In this document: in pieces, positions 24,755 through 31,394 of the stretch
How positions within the stretch are numbered: position 1 is the stretch's first letter
Layout of the letters: each line of letters opens with the position of its first letter
IMG/VR virus record: IMGVR_UViG_3300042308_000216
Location: 1 to 64,000 of that record
Length of the DNA: 64,000 bases
DNA from: a virus
Direction: 5' to 3' (one strand)
Position numbers and translations under genes: made by a program
The notes under the pieces: generated by a model
Told to the model about the DNA's origin: nothing
What the model saw: only the letters and a program-made list of their open reading frames with translations
Databases searched by the model: none

Positions 24755-24997
24755 ATGACATATAAAATACTTTCTACAAGACAAATAGATGAAACGCTAT
24801 TTACAACTGTTGAATATAACTTTGATGGCAATATTGTTACTATTGAAGTAGCACATTTTATGCCTAAAACAGAAGAAGAAATTGAACAAAATATCATTAA
24901 TAGAGCTTCAACAGAAGTAGCTAAAATAGAAGCATCTGCAACTATTTCTACATTAGTTGAATCTATTGTTATTGGTGAAATAAAACCTATTGAGTAA
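24755..24997 (+). CDS. small acidic protein, possible fibre assembly chaperone
   Basis: 80 aa; own TATATTTG element at 24732-24739. Confidence 0.55.
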   Translation: MTYKILSTRQIDETLFTTVEYNFDGNIVTIEVAHFMPKTEEEIEQNIINRASTEVAKIEASATISTLVESIVIGEIKPIE

Positions 24998-26628
24998 TGG
25001 CTTTAAGATATTGGAGACCAGGGGGTACAGGTAATTGGAATAGCACTACAAATTGGAGTGATACTCCAACTGGAGTAACAGGATCTACTGTCCCATCTGC
25101 TATAGATGATGTATTTTTTACTTCTAATTCTGGTTCAGGTACAGCTACTGTAACTTCTGGAGCTCTTTGTAAAAGTATTAATTTAACAAGTTTTGGAGGC
25201 TCTTTAGCCATGTCTAATTCTATATCAGTTTCAGGAGATGTAACTATTGGAGCAGGCATGGTTTCTGCACAAATAACTGGAGTTGGTAGTTTTACTATAA
25301 ATGCTAATTCAACATTTGATATTTTAAATGGAGTTGTAATTCCAAATATTGCAATAGCTACTGCAACATCTGGTGTAAACGTAACAATAACTTTAGTTAG
25401 AGATGTAACAATAACTAATTTTACATCAACACAAAATGGTCCAAATACTGTAAATAGTTTTTTAATAAATAGAACTTCAGTTGGTAATGGAGATAATTTA
25501 TTTATTACTGGTAATTTTACACATAACGCCAATCTTATACTTTTAACAGGGACTTCTAAAATCAATTTTATTACGTCTACTACATCTGTACTTAGCAATA
25601 CTTCTTCAACAGTAATTAGTGTAATTATTAATGCAACTGGAACATTGACTGGAACTTTATATAAAAATGGAGGAACATTAGTTAGAACCGCAGGTACTGT
25701 TAGTGGTGTAAATTTAACTATATATGGATGCACAATTACTTCAAATGGTGCTATATGGGGTAATATAACAAGTCCAGCTATTAATAGTAGTACTATTACA
25801 ACTAACGATGATTTGATTTGTACAGGTACCTTTGCACAAGCTAATTCATATTTTGTTGCTTGGGTGCATAACAGTAGTAGTGTAGTTAGAATGAGAGGTA
25901 CATCAGCACTTATAAATTCTAGAGGATTATCTGTAGTATTTGATGGATCTCAAAATTGTTCGATTATTAGTGGTAATCAGATAAATACGTTGGATATGAC
26001 ATTCAATCCTTTTAGTGGATGTCAATTAACTATTGGAGCATTTACATTATCAGGTGGTGGAAATACTATAACTTATTTAGATTCTAATGGAGGTCCAGTA
26101 CCTTTATCAACTGGATTACTTACTTTTAATAGTACTACTATTATGAATACAACACCTTCTATATCTAAATATATTATTTGGAATTCATTTACTATTGTTA
26201 CTTCTGGAGCAACACTTACATTAACTACAGATTTACACGTTTCATTTACTACAGCAATGGCTGGTAATTTTGTATTAAACACATCAACTGGAAGCAAACT
26301 TTATATGGGCGGGACTAACGCTATTCCCACAAGTTACGCAATATCAGGAACAGCAATAATTGTTTTATATTATACAGGAACACTACAAACTAATGGAGGC
26401 ACTATTTCTTCTAATATATTGATATCACCAAATACTGGTCAAACTTATACAATATCATCTTTAATAAAATCAGGTAATGGGTCTAGTATAACATACACTT
26501 CAGGTGGAGGTGTAATTAATGCAACTAGTGGTACATTAACAATTATTGCAAATATAACAATTGCTACTGGTAGTATGTCTTGGGGAAATGTAACAACAGC
26601 TAATAATACAACTATTACAATAAACTAA
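24997..26628 (+). CDS. beta-helix receptor-binding / adhesin-like protein
   Basis: RYWRPGGTGNWNSTTNWS...VPSAIDDVFF N-terminal motif followed by T/S/G/I-rich solenoid repeats. Confidence 0.7.
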   Translation: MALRYWRPGGTGNWNSTTNWSDTPTGVTGSTVPSAIDDVFFTSNSGSGTATVTSGALCKSINLTSFGGSLAMSNSISVSGDVTIGAGMVSAQITGVGSFTINANSTFDILNGVVIPNIAIATATSGVNVTITLVRDVTITNFTSTQNGPNTVNSFLINRTSVGNGDNLFITGNFTHNANLILLTGTSKINFITSTTSVLSNTSSTVISVIINATGTLTGTLYKNGGTLVRTAGTVSGVNLTIYGCTITSNGAIWGNITSPAINSSTITTNDDLICTGTFAQANSYFVAWVHNSSSVVRMRGTSALINSRGLSVVFDGSQNCSIISGNQINTLDMTFNPFSGCQLTIGAFTLSGGGNTITYLDSNGGPVPLSTGLLTFNSTTIMNTTPSISKYIIWNSFTIVTSGATLTLTTDLHVSFTTAMAGNFVLNTSTGSKLYMGGTNAIPTSYAISGTAIIVLYYTGTLQTNGGTISSNILISPNTGQTYTISSLIKSGNGSSITYTSGGGVINATSGTLTIIANITIATGSMSWGNVTTANNTTITIN

Positions 26629-26632
26629 TACT

Positions 26633-27355
26633 ATGGCTTTAAATATAGGAGGTACTTTAAATATAGGAGGAAATACTACTTTTAGTAGTAGCTCTTCTCA
26701 AGGATTTATAACTGTAAATTATACTCAAACAGCACCAGGTTCTATAGTTACATTAAAATCAGGAGTTACATATACAGTTAGTGGGCAGTTAACTATTACA
26801 GGTACTGCAGCATCAAGATGTACTTTACAAGCAACTAGTCTTATAAATATTGCTACTGGCTTTGTAACACCAGGAGCTCCTAGTGGAACTTTAAATATTT
26901 CAAGTGCAGGTGTTACTATTACTTCACCACCATCAGGATATTATAATATAATGAGTCAATTCCCAGGAAATGCACCATTATTAAAAAGAGGTGTTGCTGG
27001 AATGAATGGTTCAAATGTAACTTCAATCACATCTTTTCCAACAGTACCACCAGGTACTTCTCCTGGTAACTTTACTTTAGGAAATAATAGAAGTTTTACA
27101 ATGAGCTCTAGAAATATACAAATAGGATTAACTACTAAATTTATTCATACTTCTGTTCTAGGTGATGCTGCTAGAAGTTTAAATTATGTAACTACTTTTG
27201 ATATAGATAGTACAGGCAGTAGTGGTGGTACAATTAAAGCTGATAATTCTTATCAAAATAGAGTTGGTATTCCTAATCCTAACTTGTGGAGAACAATTAA
27301 TTGGGATTCTTTAGTACCTTTAACACCATTAATTACTGTAGGTTATATAGAATAA
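26633..27355 (+). CDS. beta-solenoid C-terminal module (paralog of 24332-24724)
   Basis: follows 24997-26628 by 4 nt with the same repeat style. Confidence 0.6.
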   Translation: MALNIGGTLNIGGNTTFSSSSSQGFITVNYTQTAPGSIVTLKSGVTYTVSGQLTITGTAASRCTLQATSLINIATGFVTPGAPSGTLNISSAGVTITSPPSGYYNIMSQFPGNAPLLKRGVAGMNGSNVTSITSFPTVPPGTSPGNFTLGNNRSFTMSSRNIQIGLTTKFIHTSVLGDAARSLNYVTTFDIDSTGSSGGTIKADNSYQNRVGIPNPNLWRTINWDSLVPLTPLITVGYIE

Positions 27356-27357
27356 TT

Positions 27358-27816
27358 ATGAGTTCACCGACTAAAACAAGTTCTAAAGGAATTGAACTAA
27401 TTAAATCTTTTGAAGGTTTTTATGCAAAACCTTATATGTGTCCAGCTAATGTAGCTACAATTGGCTATGGTACAACTAGATATCCTAATGGTAAAAAAGT
27501 AACATTGAATGATAGTCCTATAACAGAAGCAGTAGCAATAGAGTATCTAAAAGATTCTTTAATAAAATTTGAACGTGATGTTGATGCTTTTTGCAGAGAT
27601 GACATTAATCAAAATCAATTTGATGCTATAGTATCATTCTGTTATAATGTTGGGTCTAGTGCTTTAAAATCATCAACATTATTAAAAAAATTAAACGTAA
27701 ATCCTAATGATCCTAATTTAGTACAAGAGTTTGCTAAATGGAATAAAGGTGGTGGAAGAGTACTAAAAGGTCTAGTTAGACGTAGAAAAGCAGAGGCTGA
27801 TTTATACTTTGCTTAA
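27358..27816 (+). CDS. endolysin, GH24 (T4/P21-type) lysozyme
   Basis: LIKSFEG..PYMCPANVATIGYGTT, NQNQFDAIVSFCYNVG, GLVRRRKAE; likely start 27358 (track gives 27301). Confidence 0.92.
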   Translation: MSSPTKTSSKGIELIKSFEGFYAKPYMCPANVATIGYGTTRYPNGKKVTLNDSPITEAVAIEYLKDSLIKFERDVDAFCRDDINQNQFDAIVSFCYNVGSSALKSSTLLKKLNVNPNDPNLVQEFAKWNKGGGRVLKGLVRRRKAEADLYFA

Positions 27817-27833
27817 TTAAGTATCTTTGTAGT

Positions 27834-28304
27834 ATGAAGAAATTCTTACTCTGTCTGCCATTATTGTTGGTATTTACTTTCATAGGAGGTAATCAACCTG
27901 GTCCTTATATACAAGGAGATATAAGTATACAACCTATTGTAGAAAATGCAGATTTAGATATTAAGTATCAATATATAAGAAGCATCAAAGTATACTACAA
28001 AGATCCATTAGAAAAACCAATTATATTACAAAACAATGGTGCTATATATAACTATTGCTCAGATTCATCTGTAGTTATCTTTAAATCTGTTGCAGATTCT
28101 ATAAAGATACCTAGTGTTAAAAGAATGTCTTGTGAAATAATGGCTATCATTAACTTAACTAAAAGAGATTCTGAATGGTTAAAGTCACATATTGTTAATG
28201 AGGTTGCAGTAGTAAACACTATAACTGATAACAGGTTTTCTGTTTATATGGATGATACTGAATACTTTAGAAGACTAATGCTTAAATACAATGCAAAGTA
28301 TTAA
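27834..28304 (+). CDS. secreted hypothetical protein
   Basis: MKKFLLCLPLLLVFTF signal-like N-terminus; TATCTTTG at 27822-27829. Confidence 0.6.
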   Translation: MKKFLLCLPLLLVFTFIGGNQPGPYIQGDISIQPIVENADLDIKYQYIRSIKVYYKDPLEKPIILQNNGAIYNYCSDSSVVIFKSVADSIKIPSVKRMSCEIMAIINLTKRDSEWLKSHIVNEVAVVNTITDNRFSVYMDDTEYFRRLMLKYNAKY

Positions 28305-29175
28305 ATGGATACTTCTATTAATAACAAGTATAGGGTTTGCTCAATGTCCAAATATAGGATTTGAAAATAGTAACTTTAGTGGATGGGTAGGTAGCAGAGG
28401 TTCTTGTTGTCCTATAGTTATAACAAATGCAGGTATAGTTTCTAATAGGCATACTATAACATCAGGTACAGCAACAGATACTAATACTTGTAATGTAGTT
28501 CCAATAGTTGCTCCAGGTAGTACTCGTTCTGCTAGATTAGGTAATAATGATGTTAATGCAGAAGCTGAAAGCTTAAGTTATAACTTTACAGTAACACCAA
28601 CATCTAATTTAATTACTTATCAGTATGCTGTAGTGTTTGAAGACCCAGGACATACAGCATCACAGCAACCTAGATTTGAAGCATCAATAGTAAGAGCTAA
28701 TGGAACTGTTGTAGCATGTACACAATTTTTAGCAACTGCAGCTAGTGGATTAGCAGGATTTCAATCTTGTAATAAAGTTGATGTTTTAGGATATCCAATA
28801 GTTGTTAGATATAAAAATTGGAGTACAATAGCTGCAGATGTTTCTGCATATATGGGTCAAACTTTAACTTTAAGATTTAGAACAGGAGATTGTTCACAAG
28901 GTGGGCATTTTGGTTATGCTTATGTAGATGCTAGTTGTGGACCACTGCAATTAGCTATAGATTATTGTGTTAATGATATGTATGCTGTAGTTACTGCACC
29001 ATCAGGATTCTTTTCTTATCTATGGTCTACAGGAGAAACAACACAAACTATTTATGTAAATCCACTGCAAGCTATTACTGTTTCTTGCACTATAACAACT
29101 GCTTTAGGATGCACATCTGTAGTATCTGTACCTATAACACCAGTTGCTAATTTCCCTGCAATATATACCAATTAA
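28291..29175 (+). CDS. secreted Bacteroidota adhesin-like domain protein
   Basis: signal peptide ending FA|Q, CPNIGFE..NFSGW, YQYAVVFEDPGH, GDCSQGGHFGYAYVD and YLWSTGETTQTI motifs typical of T9SS-secreted proteins. Confidence 0.7.
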   Translation: MQSIKWILLLITSIGFAQCPNIGFENSNFSGWVGSRGSCCPIVITNAGIVSNRHTITSGTATDTNTCNVVPIVAPGSTRSARLGNNDVNAEAESLSYNFTVTPTSNLITYQYAVVFEDPGHTASQQPRFEASIVRANGTVVACTQFLATAASGLAGFQSCNKVDVLGYPIVVRYKNWSTIAADVSAYMGQTLTLRFRTGDCSQGGHFGYAYVDASCGPLQLAIDYCVNDMYAVVTAPSGFFSYLWSTGETTQTIYVNPLQAITVSCTITTALGCTSVVSVPITPVANFPAIYTN

Positions 29176-29213
29176 TCGTATTTATTTTATAGTTATCTTT
29201 GTAAAAATACTAT

Positions 29214-29774
29214 ATGAAAAATTTGGTAATGTCAATTATTTTTATATTACTTTGTGTATCAAGTTATGCACAAGTACCTACACCCCTTGTTGCCAATGGG
29301 CAAACTGTCTGTGTAGGTGCTAACCACCATTATGGTGATCAAGTAATTACACCATCATCTAACTATGCATTTAGTATAACTCCTGTACAAGCATTTAGTG
29401 TTGTAGGAAAACAAATAAATATTACTTGGACTGTTCAAGGAGTATATACTATGACTATGACAGAGACAACATCTGCAGGGTGTCTATATACAACTACTTG
29501 TATTATCACTGTATTACCACCTATAACAGTAGCATTAGATCCTATTGTTGTATGTCAAGATGGTTTACCACAAACTATAACAGGAACTAACATTGGCTCT
29601 AACCCATCTTTTAGTGGAGTAGGAGTATCTAACAATACATTTAATCCTTCAGGTATATTACCTGGGATATATACTATAAACTTAACTTCAACAACAGCTA
29701 ATGGTTGTGCTACAGTAGGCACCACAACAGCAACAATAAATCCACTACCAACAGGCATTATATATACAGATTAA
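29214..29774 (+). CDS. secreted Ig/PKD-like repeat protein
   Basis: signal peptide ending YA|Q; FSGVGV...FNPS...PG.YTI...NGC repeat; TATCTTTG at 29194-29201. Confidence 0.7.
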   Translation: MKNLVMSIIFILLCVSSYAQVPTPLVANGQTVCVGANHHYGDQVITPSSNYAFSITPVQAFSVVGKQINITWTVQGVYTMTMTETTSAGCLYTTTCIITVLPPITVALDPIVVCQDGLPQTITGTNIGSNPSFSGVGVSNNTFNPSGILPGIYTINLTSTTANGCATVGTTTATINPLPTGIIYTD

Positions 29775-30331
29775 TGAAACTATATGCATTATTTTGTTTA
29801 ATTAGTTTAAATATAAATGCACAAACAATTAGAGAATATGAACTATGCAATGATTATTTAACTAAAGAAATCAGGGCTGTAACTACAAATGCTACTGTAA
29901 GTTGGGAGGTTTCACCTTATGTACCATACCAAGTAAGTAATAATGTTATGACTATTACTTTTAACAGTACAGGTTACTATGTTATAAGTGCTGATTTTAG
30001 AAATGGTGATTGTTATAAAGAAGATAAAATAATAATAATAATAAAAGAATGTACAGAGACTTTTATTTATTTTCCCAATAGTTTTACACCTAATGGAGAT
30101 AATGACAATGAAAGCTTTGGACCAAAAGGAATAAATGTTTATGATTTTAAAATGTATGTATATAACAGATGGGGAGAGTTAATCTTCACTGCAAAAGATA
30201 TAAGTGATAGATGGGATGGCTATTATAAAACTAGAGTATGTCAAAGTGATATCTACGTTTATAAAGCCTTCTATAAAGATAAAAGAGGTAAGGAGTATAA
30301 CAAAATTGGTAAAATAGCACTAATTAAATAA
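29774..30331 (+). CDS. T9SS type-B sorting (gliding-motility-associated C-terminal, CHU_C) domain protein
   Basis: signal peptide NA|Q; IYFPNSFTPNGDNDNESF..YVYNRWGELIF..WDG..DIYVY..GKIALIK; true start 29774 (TAATG overlap). Confidence 0.88.
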   Translation: MKLYALFCLISLNINAQTIREYELCNDYLTKEIRAVTTNATVSWEVSPYVPYQVSNNVMTITFNSTGYYVISADFRNGDCYKEDKIIIIIKECTETFIYFPNSFTPNGDNDNESFGPKGINVYDFKMYVYNRWGELIFTAKDISDRWDGYYKTRVCQSDIYVYKAFYKDKRGKEYNKIGKIALIK

Positions 30332-30339
30332 CCTAACTT

Positions 30340-30654
30340 ATGAACCAGACTCTATTATTAGCCATCATTGCAGCAATATCATCAGTATTAACAATACTAA
30401 TTCCTAAGCTTCTACCATCAACTAGAAGAAAGGATGCTGTAGATATGTATGCAGAACTACAAGAAAAACTATATAGTGAGATAGAAAGACTAGAAAAGAA
30501 AATCTTACAATTAGAAAATAAAGAGAAGGAAGCTTTTGATGTAGAAGAAAAACTCACCAAAAGAATCATGGAATTAGAACAAGAAAATAAAAGACAAGCC
30601 TATGAAATTGAACAACTTAAAGCAGAACTTGCTAAACATGTCAAAAGTAACTAA
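30340..30654 (+). CDS. single-TM coiled-coil protein, holin/antiholin-like
   Basis: N-terminal TM then coiled coil; lysis context. Confidence 0.5.
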   Translation: MNQTLLLAIIAAISSVLTILIPKLLPSTRRKDAVDMYAELQEKLYSEIERLEKKILQLENKEKEAFDVEEKLTKRIMELEQENKRQAYEIEQLKAELAKHVKSN

Positions 30655-30895
30655 AGACTCATTCTTTGAATCTCTCAAAGGCAGTAATGGTAAAATAGAC
30701 CATAAACGATTAACAGTATTAGCTTTTGTATTAGTGTTTATTGGTATAACTATAATAGGCTTGTATAAAAAAACACCTATTGTAAACCAAACACTAATGG
30801 AAACTATACTGTATATAATTGGATCTGTTATATTAGGAGGGATGGGATTAACAAAAATAAAAACAAAAACAGAAACAACCAATGAAACTCAGTAA
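30638..30895 (+). CDS. putative holin (2 TM)
   Basis: GKIDHKR followed by two TM segments, directly upstream of an endolysin; likely start 30638. Confidence 0.6.
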   Translation: MSKVTKDSFFESLKGSNGKIDHKRLTVLAFVLVFIGITIIGLYKKTPIVNQTLMETILYIIGSVILGGMGLTKIKTKTETTNETQ

Positions 30896-31394
30896 AAACT
30901 TCGCATTAGATGAATTAACCAAATCACCATCTGCAACTAGATGGGGCTTTGAAGAACAGTTTACACCTACACAAGATGTAATAGATAACCTTACTTTATT
31001 ATGTGTTAAAGTGTTACAGCCTATTAGAGATATCCTAAAGGATTCAATAACAGTTACATCTGGATATAGATGTCCTAGATTAAATGCTAAAATTGGTGGT
31101 GCCTACACTATTATCAATGGTAAACCTGTACAGAGTTCACAGCATTGCTTTGGACAAGCTGCAGATATTAACTATGTTAAGTCAGATGGAGACCACAATA
31201 ACTTAATCTTAGCAGCAGTCAAAGAACTAATGTCTGACCCTAGCTTTACTTTTGACCAATGTATAGCAGAATTTGGTACAGAGAGTAATCCTGCTTGGGT
31301 ACACATCTCTTATTCTAATAAGAAAAACAGAATGCAAGTTCTTAGAGCATACAAGTCAGGTAAAAAAACTTTATATAAAGAGTGGAAACTATGA
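30882..31394 (+). CDS. endolysin, peptidase M15A family
   Basis: LSKNFALDEL, VTSGYRC..LN..IGG, SQHCFGQAADI, WVHIS zinc-ligand motifs. Confidence 0.9.
   Translation: MKLSKNFALDELTKSPSATRWGFEEQFTPTQDVIDNLTLLCVKVLQPIRDILKDSITVTSGYRCPRLNAKIGGAYTIINGKPVQSSQHCFGQAADINYVKSDGDHNNLILAAVKELMSDPSFTFDQCIAEFGTESNPAWVHISYSNKKNRMQVLRAYKSGKKTLYKEWKL

Follow-up and report, generated by a model that had tools for sequence, protein, structure and literature searches.

A four-gene cassette of a crAss-like phage with a type-B sorting domain and a shared C-terminal tail: a putative multi-part adhesin carried by the host type IX secretion system

The stretch of DNA analysed here (the window) is the first 64 kb of the 95.9 kb IMG/VR virus record IMGVR_UViG_3300042308_000216, which is 59% complete. 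Between a phage lysozyme gene and an M15 peptidase region it carries four co-directional genes on the + strand, which we call A (27834-28304, 156 aa), B (28291-29175, 294 aa), C (29214-29774, 186 aa) and D (29774-30331, 185 aa). B and C end in a common short tail, and D ends in a type-B sorting domain of the Bacteroidota type IX secretion system (T9SS). On balance we think it probable that this cassette encodes a three-part, perhaps four-part, cell-surface adhesin that is exported through the host T9SS and whose subunits are docked to one another by the tails. The end of A and the start of B overlap by 14 nt, and the stop codon of C overlaps the start codon of D (TAATG). Joining of B, C and D by read-through, recoding or frameshift was rejected, since they lie in three different reading frames, each with its own signal peptide, and ORFs of more than 3,500 aa are open under the standard code.

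An earlier note, made from the letters of this DNA alone, had described four consecutive genes with signal peptides, three of them cleaved before glutamine, and all four ORFs are as it described. Each protein has a signal-peptide-like start, read from the sequence and from conservation, with predicted cleavage (marked by a slash) at ...SIGFA/QC in B (residues 1-17, 28291-28344, + strand; cleavage FA/Q18, the Q-C pair being conserved across relatives), at ...SSYA/QV in C and at ...NINA/QT in D, whose signal peptide reads MKLYALFCLISLNINA/Q. The predicted cleavage is of the signal peptidase I type, with no lipobox, and falls before glutamine, a pattern known in Bacteroidota as the 'Q-rule'. This glutamine is invariant in the C family (Q20) and general among the relatives of B and D, as far as can be read from their sequences. 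The start of gene A reads ...FIGG/NQ, and its relatives have .../QQP.

The last protein, D, is the predicted anchor. Its first part (29774-30049, + strand) holds the signal peptide (NA/Q17) and an N-terminal immunoglobulin-like (Ig-like) domain, the predicted acceptor of the tail in the complex model described below, and its second part (30068-30328, + strand) is a type-B C-terminal sorting domain (CTD). The CTD had been called intact, and it does score above the curated cut-offs of both models, with 48.5 bits against a cut-off of 27 for CHU_C (PF13585) and 51.2 bits against a cut-off of 35 for TIGR04131. FPNxFTPNGD, NRWG and WDG blocks are present by eye, and PMC12618676 names five conserved CTD motifs, A-E, as needed for secretion. 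B and C gave no hit to CHU_C, TIGR04131 or Por_Secre_tail, and with no T9SS CTD these two proteins are not T9SS cargo by the usual definition. With its CTD above both cut-offs, D upholds the idea of phage-encoded type-B cargo, for which a host partner of the PorP/SprF type would be needed. Such a partner is reasonable to expect, since on the cell surface type-B cargo remains attached to PorP-like proteins (PMC9143113) and since in Flavobacterium johnsoniae a single host shuttle can be shared by orphan proteins with a type-B CTD (PMC12618676). A search with D of 50,697 deposited phage genomes returned only two uncultured jumbo-phage records and one fragment; tblastn with B and megablast with the region gave no match in the same set.

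The monomer model of B (pLDDT 87.7) is a jelly-roll followed by an Ig-like domain. The head, or predicted 'tip' (28345-28950, + strand), is a beta jelly-roll of about 200 residues that resembles carbohydrate-binding modules (CBM) and MAM domains. Its best fold match is the porphyran-binding CBM 8xmz (Z 12.2, rmsd 3.2 over 132 residues), followed by 2xom (CBM61, Z 11.1), and Foldseek also gives CBM matches. MAM domains and GH16 enzymes share this fold at Z ~10, and the fold does not fix function; as modelled, the head looks like a sugar-binding module and may bind sugar. No catalytic fold was recognised in it, nor any GH16-type motif in an alignment judged by eye, and B matched no Pfam, NCBIfam or PHROG family. 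The Ig-like domain (residues ~221-283; 28951-29139, + strand) has its model strands at 222-281 and a conserved YCV...GF.SY.W.TG.TT...GC block, and it is followed by a linker and the C-terminal tail, ...PVANFPAIYTN-COOH (29140-29172, + strand), which is conserved and is disordered in the monomer model.

Relatives of B number 111. When bacterial ones were sought in species-representative genomes (Flavobacterium, Formosa, Crocinitomicaceae, Chitinophaga and others), the B head was found to be the N-terminus of a CHU_C-ending protein of 540-2716 aa in 80 of the best 80 loci, and none of the 80 was tail-ended. The phage head is 45-52% identical to these adhesin heads. The earlier note had held that the two middle proteins carry domains that normally sit at the N-terminus of one large protein. 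This is right for B, because all 80 bacterial heads are N-terminal in CHU_C proteins, and holds only partly for C, whose PKD-like domains were found inside large bacterial ORFs and also in separate tail-ended bacterial proteins.

Protein C consists of a signal peptide and two PKD-like Ig domains extending to 29738 (the predicted 'stalk'), and it closes with the tail NPLPTGIIYTD-COOH (residues 176-186; 29739-29771, + strand), which family conservation and the complex model point to as a docking strand. PKD_6 (PF19408) was matched by 7 of the 13 aligned family members (best E 3.7e-10); the window copy gave only a sub-threshold PKD_4 match (20.2 bits against a cut-off of 27), and no PHROG family was found for C. 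Judging from profiles that cross-match, the first domain of C is of the same kind as the N-terminal domain of D, and in phages that have only B and D the first domain of D resembles that of C.

The tail that B (FPAIYTN) and C (TGIIYTD) share, which the earlier note had picked out, is real and unique in the record: the pattern I-Y-T-[N/D] followed by a stop codon occurs twice in the 95.9 kb, at the ends of these two genes, and not once in the reversed control. Across 15 relatives of B (78-94% identity) P[AVT]IYTN is invariant and the linker before it varies, and nearly all full-length short relatives of B stop at the same point, with ...P..P.I-x-H-N/D. In alignments with other members of the B family, the tail occupies the place of a type-B or type-A CTD. 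We rejected recombination or shufflon sites, as the only similarity at the two tails (16 nt) is the tail coding sequence itself. A SpyTag-like isopeptide bond donated by the terminal Asn or Asp was also discarded, given that bacterial tails can end in Phe or Tyr and that the acceptor strand has no conserved Lys.

In a viral survey of tail-ended B that covered 47 IMG/VR loci, the gene recurs, in varied phage types, with a tail-ended C-like gene that is immediately followed by a small D-like CHU_C gene, the stop of the former overlapping the start of the latter. The B and C of one phage share their tail class (IYT[N/D], I-x-H-[N/D] or S-D-x-N) in all loci that have both (B/C pairs IYTN/IYTD, ISHN/ISHD, IWHD/ITHD and YSDQN/NSDN). 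A scan of IMG/VR for type-B CTDs gave 211 matches, and the best 80 loci were taken, which hold 30 small CTD genes of the D-like kind. Of these, 28 have an upstream neighbour, and in 27 cases it is a tail-ended gene 185-200 aa long. The predicted acceptor strand of D differs with the tail class, being KEIRAVT with IYTD, QKYSV or KKYWI with IFTN, and [FY]TY.. with I-x-H-N/D. Tail and acceptor strand thus appear to change together, which fits co-evolution, and at the level of sequence it is supported that the tails are a shared, functional feature.

For a model of the complex we combined C (residues 20-186) with D (residues 18-185), supplied the family alignment of each, and obtained a score of 0.62 (0.62, 0.64 and 0.62 in separate runs), against 0.19 for the best of three controls. 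In a benchmark of the score mark it was passed by 58 of 80 solved complexes and by 2 of 110 mismatched pairs, counts that apply here only approximately, since our own alignments went into the model. At least 90% of contacts recur between the runs, the partner pLDDT is at least 84, and the interface is formed by C residues 176-186, which are exactly the tail, and 114-116, against D residues 18, 20, 31-40 and 71-88. The model therefore places the tail on the N-terminal Ig-like domain of D, not on the CTD, and supports binding of the C tail to that domain. It had been proposed that the tails are donor strands by which CTD-less subunits ride on the CTD protein; the docking on D stands in the model and agrees with the matching tail classes and the adjacency of C and D, but the CTD is not where the tail lies. 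The idea that the tail is a vestigial first strand of CHU_C that complements the CTD of D was rejected for the same reason, and the CTD has its own first strand. For B, a B-C-D chain would be the economical reading, since the first domains of C and D seem to be of the same kind.

These results bear directly on the possibility that the tails are a mere conserved domain boundary, made of a Pro linker and the stub of a lost domain, with B and C acting alone in the periplasm or being released at lysis and D an unrelated small cargo that is linked to them. The B tail does align with the start of a PKD domain in longer relatives, is loosely like the first strand of CHU_C (FPAIYTN against FPNSFTPN) and is disordered in the monomer model, and some phages have B with no C or D in the fetched flanks. 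However, a stub does not sit well with a tail that is invariant after a variable linker, that stops at the very same residue in two proteins of different domains and changes class in step in both, that closes the gene before D in 27 of 28 cases, and that makes up exactly the interface of a model scoring well above its controls. We consider this explanation unlikely.

The C family was also searched in 301 Flavobacteriales genomes, where we found operons of three parts: a head protein (GEVED and Ig_7, 430-615 aa) ending in ...QPINH[YF], ...PIIHN, ...LISHN or ...IISD, a PKD_6 protein ending in ...GPIQH[FN], ...GPIFHN or ...GPIIFN, and a PKD_6+PKD+CHU_C protein. Two of these operons adjoin genes that by sequence are ftsY-, rimO/miaB-, guaA- and gyrA-like, on contigs of 115-164 kb, and they are chromosomal. 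The split is thus not a phage device: Flavobacteriales chromosomes hold the same layout of tail, tail and CTD, and for that reason a phage-specific split form was ruled out. Also rejected was the idea that C and D arose by splitting of bacterial proteins of ~350 aa, which are not fusions but longer tail-ended C-like proteins. As the chromosomal operons share the arrangement, we conclude that phages captured and compacted a native multi-subunit system, and as the heads differ between the phage and bacterial sets the design is modular.

The operon L137 (...QPINHY, ...GPIQHF, PKD_6+PKD+CHU_C) has the same gene order as the cassette and the same Pro-rich linker followed by a tail, and its kind likewise carries the CTD on the last gene, behind a PKD_6-type first domain. 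The bacterial operons differ in having a GEVED head instead of a CBM-like one, longer stalks and anchors, a last tail residue that can be F or Y, and a housekeeping neighbourhood. We found no published description of such tail, tail and CTD operons in Flavobacteriales. In two of them a gene for an exported LysM-domain protein of ~450 aa lies just before the tail-ended head gene (L137:8937-10277, L138:7418-8803).

Among phages, T4-like and jumbo phage contigs hold a trio of B, C and D type in other neighbourhoods. Compared with the trio with I-x-H-N/D tails in T4-like contigs (of the L003, L004 and L085 kind), the window has the His-less tail I-Y-T-N/D, a B without an extra PKD domain, the additional gene A and a fixed place in the lysis cluster. 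L003 itself, a 123 kb phage contig with an ISHN-type trio, has three further exported proteins (L003:2647-3615, L003:9651-12258), namely a HYR-like protein (322 aa), an outer-membrane-barrel-like protein of 265 aa that ends in ...VIF and is not PorP/SprF by Pfam, and, right after the latter, a CHU_C protein of 602 aa. Another, larger family of phage type-B CTD proteins (650-860 aa, mature start ...SQYCP...) accounts for 48 of the 78 CTD genes that the best viral loci contain (L159-L218, e.g. L163:1677-3890 and L173:1154-3914). An ORF of 162 aa ending in ...QPDYC[IV]LN[YF] often precedes it, and the two may form another two-part phage T9SS cargo.

The bacterial counterparts also raise the alternative that the phage tails dock mainly on PKD_6-type subunits or adhesins of the host, and so cap, replace or jam its adhesin or gliding apparatus, with receptor masking or superinfection exclusion as the outcome. 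This is in essence the functional idea of the earlier note, in which the phage would decorate or jam the host T9SS and gliding machinery, so as to exclude superinfection or change the adhesion or motility of infected cells. T9SS and gliding mutants have altered susceptibility to Flavobacterium phages. Cross-docking is conceivable, given the same tail-and-acceptor architecture in Flavobacteriales and a B head about half identical to host adhesin heads. Yet the phage carries a complete set of its own, including the anchor, and the tail and the D acceptor strand covary within phage lineages, which points to internal pairing. We regard docking on host proteins as a shade less likely even than the boundary stub.

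Under the reading that we prefer, that of a tail-docked adhesin, an infected Bacteroidota cell would make the cassette proteins and export them through its own T9SS. D would be the anchor, with its CTD recognised by a host shuttle of the PorP/SprF type, C the stalk and B the tip, with its CBM-like head and Ig domain. B and C would enter the periplasm by their own signal peptides, without a CTD, and each would use its Pro linker and beta-strand tail to extend, by one strand, the first Ig-like domain of the subunit that follows, C docking on D as in the model and B probably on the first domain of C or else on D itself. Once assembled, the complex would pass the outer membrane on the signal of D, by 'hitch-hiking', and the lectin-like head would be displayed on the cell. 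The T9SS translocon is reported (Lauber et al. 2018) to be a barrel of very large size, believed to let folded cargo through, and given a barrel of that size joint export of a small complex would be physically possible. For the phage, the gain could lie in the aggregation of host cells, in attachment to particles, or in the masking of a glycan or receptor at the surface.

The fourth protein, A, is harder to place. No match to it was found in Pfam, NCBIfam or PHROG, and its 47 relatives are all unnamed. Its model (pLDDT 86) is beta-rich, and a fold search (Foldseek, VIA-align) gave as best match the Bartonella IalB 3dtd at Z 6.9, which is within background. The gene is confined to phage lineages with IYT[N/D] tails, where it is placed before or after B.

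Several points weigh against an adhesin docked by its tails. Gene A has no recognisable family or fold that would explain its role. Many solved structures show a strand added to an Ig-like domain, and the confidence of the model may be partly generic; the model covers only the C-D pair, and the docking site of B is inferred. The match between tail class and acceptor amounts to about three independent classes and is confounded by phylogeny, and some bacterial operons combine two unlike tails (IISD and IIFN), so that 'same tail, same acceptor' is not a general rule. We found no report in the searchable literature of T9SS export of a pre-assembled hetero-complex. As the earlier note had remarked, the window has no PorP/SprF gene, and none (PF11751) was found in the 95.9 kb of this 59% complete record. 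Finally, B stands alone, with neither a C-like nor a D-like gene, within the fetched flanks of some phage contigs (L107-L116, L122, L123). In L107-L116 and L122 it is a B-like protein of 454 aa with the ending ...VSVFTN; either its partners lie elsewhere or its tail works with a host acceptor.

The closest known proteins are the single-chain adhesins of the SprB/RemA type of F. johnsoniae (PMC9143113, PMC12618676). They have in common with the cassette a Sec signal and a CHU_C/TIGR04131 domain (in D), a head with Ig or PKD repeats, and an expected host partner of the PorP/SprF kind. Here, in contrast, head, stalk and CTD are three polypeptides with their own signal peptides, two of them CTD-less and tail-ended, and they are encoded by a phage with no linked shuttle gene. 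The 'Cryophage' of Bacteroidota has genes with T9SS sorting domains, presumed to be secreted by the host (Bellas et al. 2020, PMC7468147), but its cargo consists of single enzymes or a PA14 protein with type-A CTDs (PMC7468147), whereas the cassette has a type-B CTD on a tiny anchor with two CTD-less partners. As in type V (FimA/Mfa1) and chaperone-usher pili, a terminal strand would complete or extend the next Ig-like fold, which for the cassette is a prediction of the model. C-terminal donor strands are used in type V pili. The cassette subunits, unlike those of such pili, are not lipoproteins, come as one gene copy each with no sign of a polymerising major subunit, and would take the T9SS route. 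No FimA/Mfa, fimbrillin or usher family match was found in the cassette with Pfam and NCBIfam. Donor-strand complementation is discussed for Mfa4 in PMC4789730.

Phage-encoded T9SS cargo was thus already known, as type-A CTDs on single enzymes (PMC7468147). In a literature search we found no paper on the tail or on a split architecture of several genes. New here are the crAss-like carrier, the His-less variant of the tail and the fourth gene, the near-obligate adjacency of C and D over viral contigs, the controlled complex model with the tail on the N-terminal domain of D, and the chromosomal bacterial counterparts of the tail, tail and CTD layout.

This is possibly a general hitch-hiking mechanism for type-B T9SS adhesins. 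A broader proposal, which we advance tentatively and hold to have somewhat less than an even chance, is that the Pro linker with a Φ-x-[H/T]-[N/D] tail (Φ, hydrophobic) is a general, undescribed targeting device of Bacteroidota. By it, CTD-less proteins would attach by strand addition to a small carrier with a type-B CTD, at its first Ig-like domain, pass the outer membrane pre-assembled and form modular tip-stalk-anchor adhesins; the device would have its home in Flavobacteriales chromosomes, and unrelated phages (crAss-like, T4-like and jumbo) would have captured it repeatedly to re-surface the infected cell. If tails do dock CTD-less proteins, CTD searches alone would miss T9SS cargo, and the T9SS would join the Tat system, which carries hitch-hiking partners, as a pathway of this kind. 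The modular 'clip-on' adhesin design could then serve as a tool of surface display in Bacteroidota. Several unrelated phage lineages would be devoting late-gene space to altering what the surface of an infected cell binds, and adhesion, aggregation and receptor masking in aquatic phage-host dynamics would become testable through the four-gene cassette.

The carrier is a genuine phage of lake origin, with a gene layout that fits crAss-like phages. Genes for a large terminase, a portal, a major head protein and tail fibres are found upstream of the cassette, and five giant ORFs, crAss-type cargo genes, lie downstream. That the cassette might be an assembly chimera or host contamination within a viral contig, which the earlier note had named as a way in which its reading could fail, is suggested by the nearest non-phage relatives of B, C and D, which are bacterial. 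It is refuted by synteny across independent assemblies, as contigs L002 and L119-L121 share both cassette and flanks, and the phage genes on either side and an even GC content throughout the region speak against it too; we give it practically no weight.

The lysozyme (endolysin) gene directly upstream of A (27358-27816, + strand; PF00959, E 1e-40) is the same neighbour in L002 and L119, and so are, in the same order, two small membrane proteins and an M15 peptidase directly downstream of D (30340-31394, + strand). The cassette is thereby bracketed by two different cell-wall hydrolases, as the M15 gene itself occupies 30882-31394. The membrane proteins, of 104 aa (a transmembrane segment and a coiled coil) and 97 aa, have overlapping genes, and the M15 gene is followed by that of a 194 aa protein with a transmembrane segment at its N-terminus; these could be holin or spanin-like components of the lysis cluster of a Bacteroidota phage. 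The position of the cassette between lysozyme and M15 peptidase is kept in relatives down to ~45% identity, and such a fixed place in the lysis cluster of the crAss-like lineage suggests late expression.

One could therefore see the cassette as part of the lysis module, disrupting the outer membrane or capsule from outside or keeping progeny off debris, instead of as an adhesin of the living cell. In the crAss-like lineage it always lies between the lysozyme and the membrane proteins with the M15 peptidase, and, with no more than 8 nt between D and the next gene, it is apparently transcribed together with them. The trio occurs elsewhere in T4-like and jumbo phage contigs, however, no catalytic fold was found, the B head best matches binding modules, and the bacterial counterparts are chromosomal operons unrelated to lysis. 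A role in lysis seems to us improbable, well behind either of the two explanations of the tail discussed above.

Two of the cassette genes had been said to have TAnnTTTG elements of their own, and TATCTTTGTA, a promoter-like element of this Bacteroidota type, indeed precedes A (27822-27831, + strand, 3 nt before the ATG) and again C (29194-29203, + strand, 10 nt before the ATG). Within 40 nt upstream of gene starts TAnnTTTG was observed 8 times against 1.4 expected, and this enrichment makes host-type promoters plausible. As the first element is so close to the ATG, the mRNA of gene A would be leaderless or nearly so. All four genes are under purifying selection: in comparison with the related contig L002, dN/dS is 0.095 in A, 0.28 in B, 0.18 in C and 0.15 in D.

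Directly upstream of the lysozyme gene, positions 24997-27355 encode two repeat-rich proteins (543 and 240 aa) of no family. At the same position the 89%-related L002 has an unrelated fibre-like protein of 1044 aa (L002:1761-4895) and L119 has another set, so the region looks like a swapped receptor-binding module adjoining the conserved cassette. L119 comes from a crAss-like relative that is further removed; there the genes run B-A-C-D, as against A-B-C-D in the window, and its B (L119:5494-6846) is 450 aa long, with an additional Cys-rich N-terminal domain of ~155 residues ahead of the CBM-like head.

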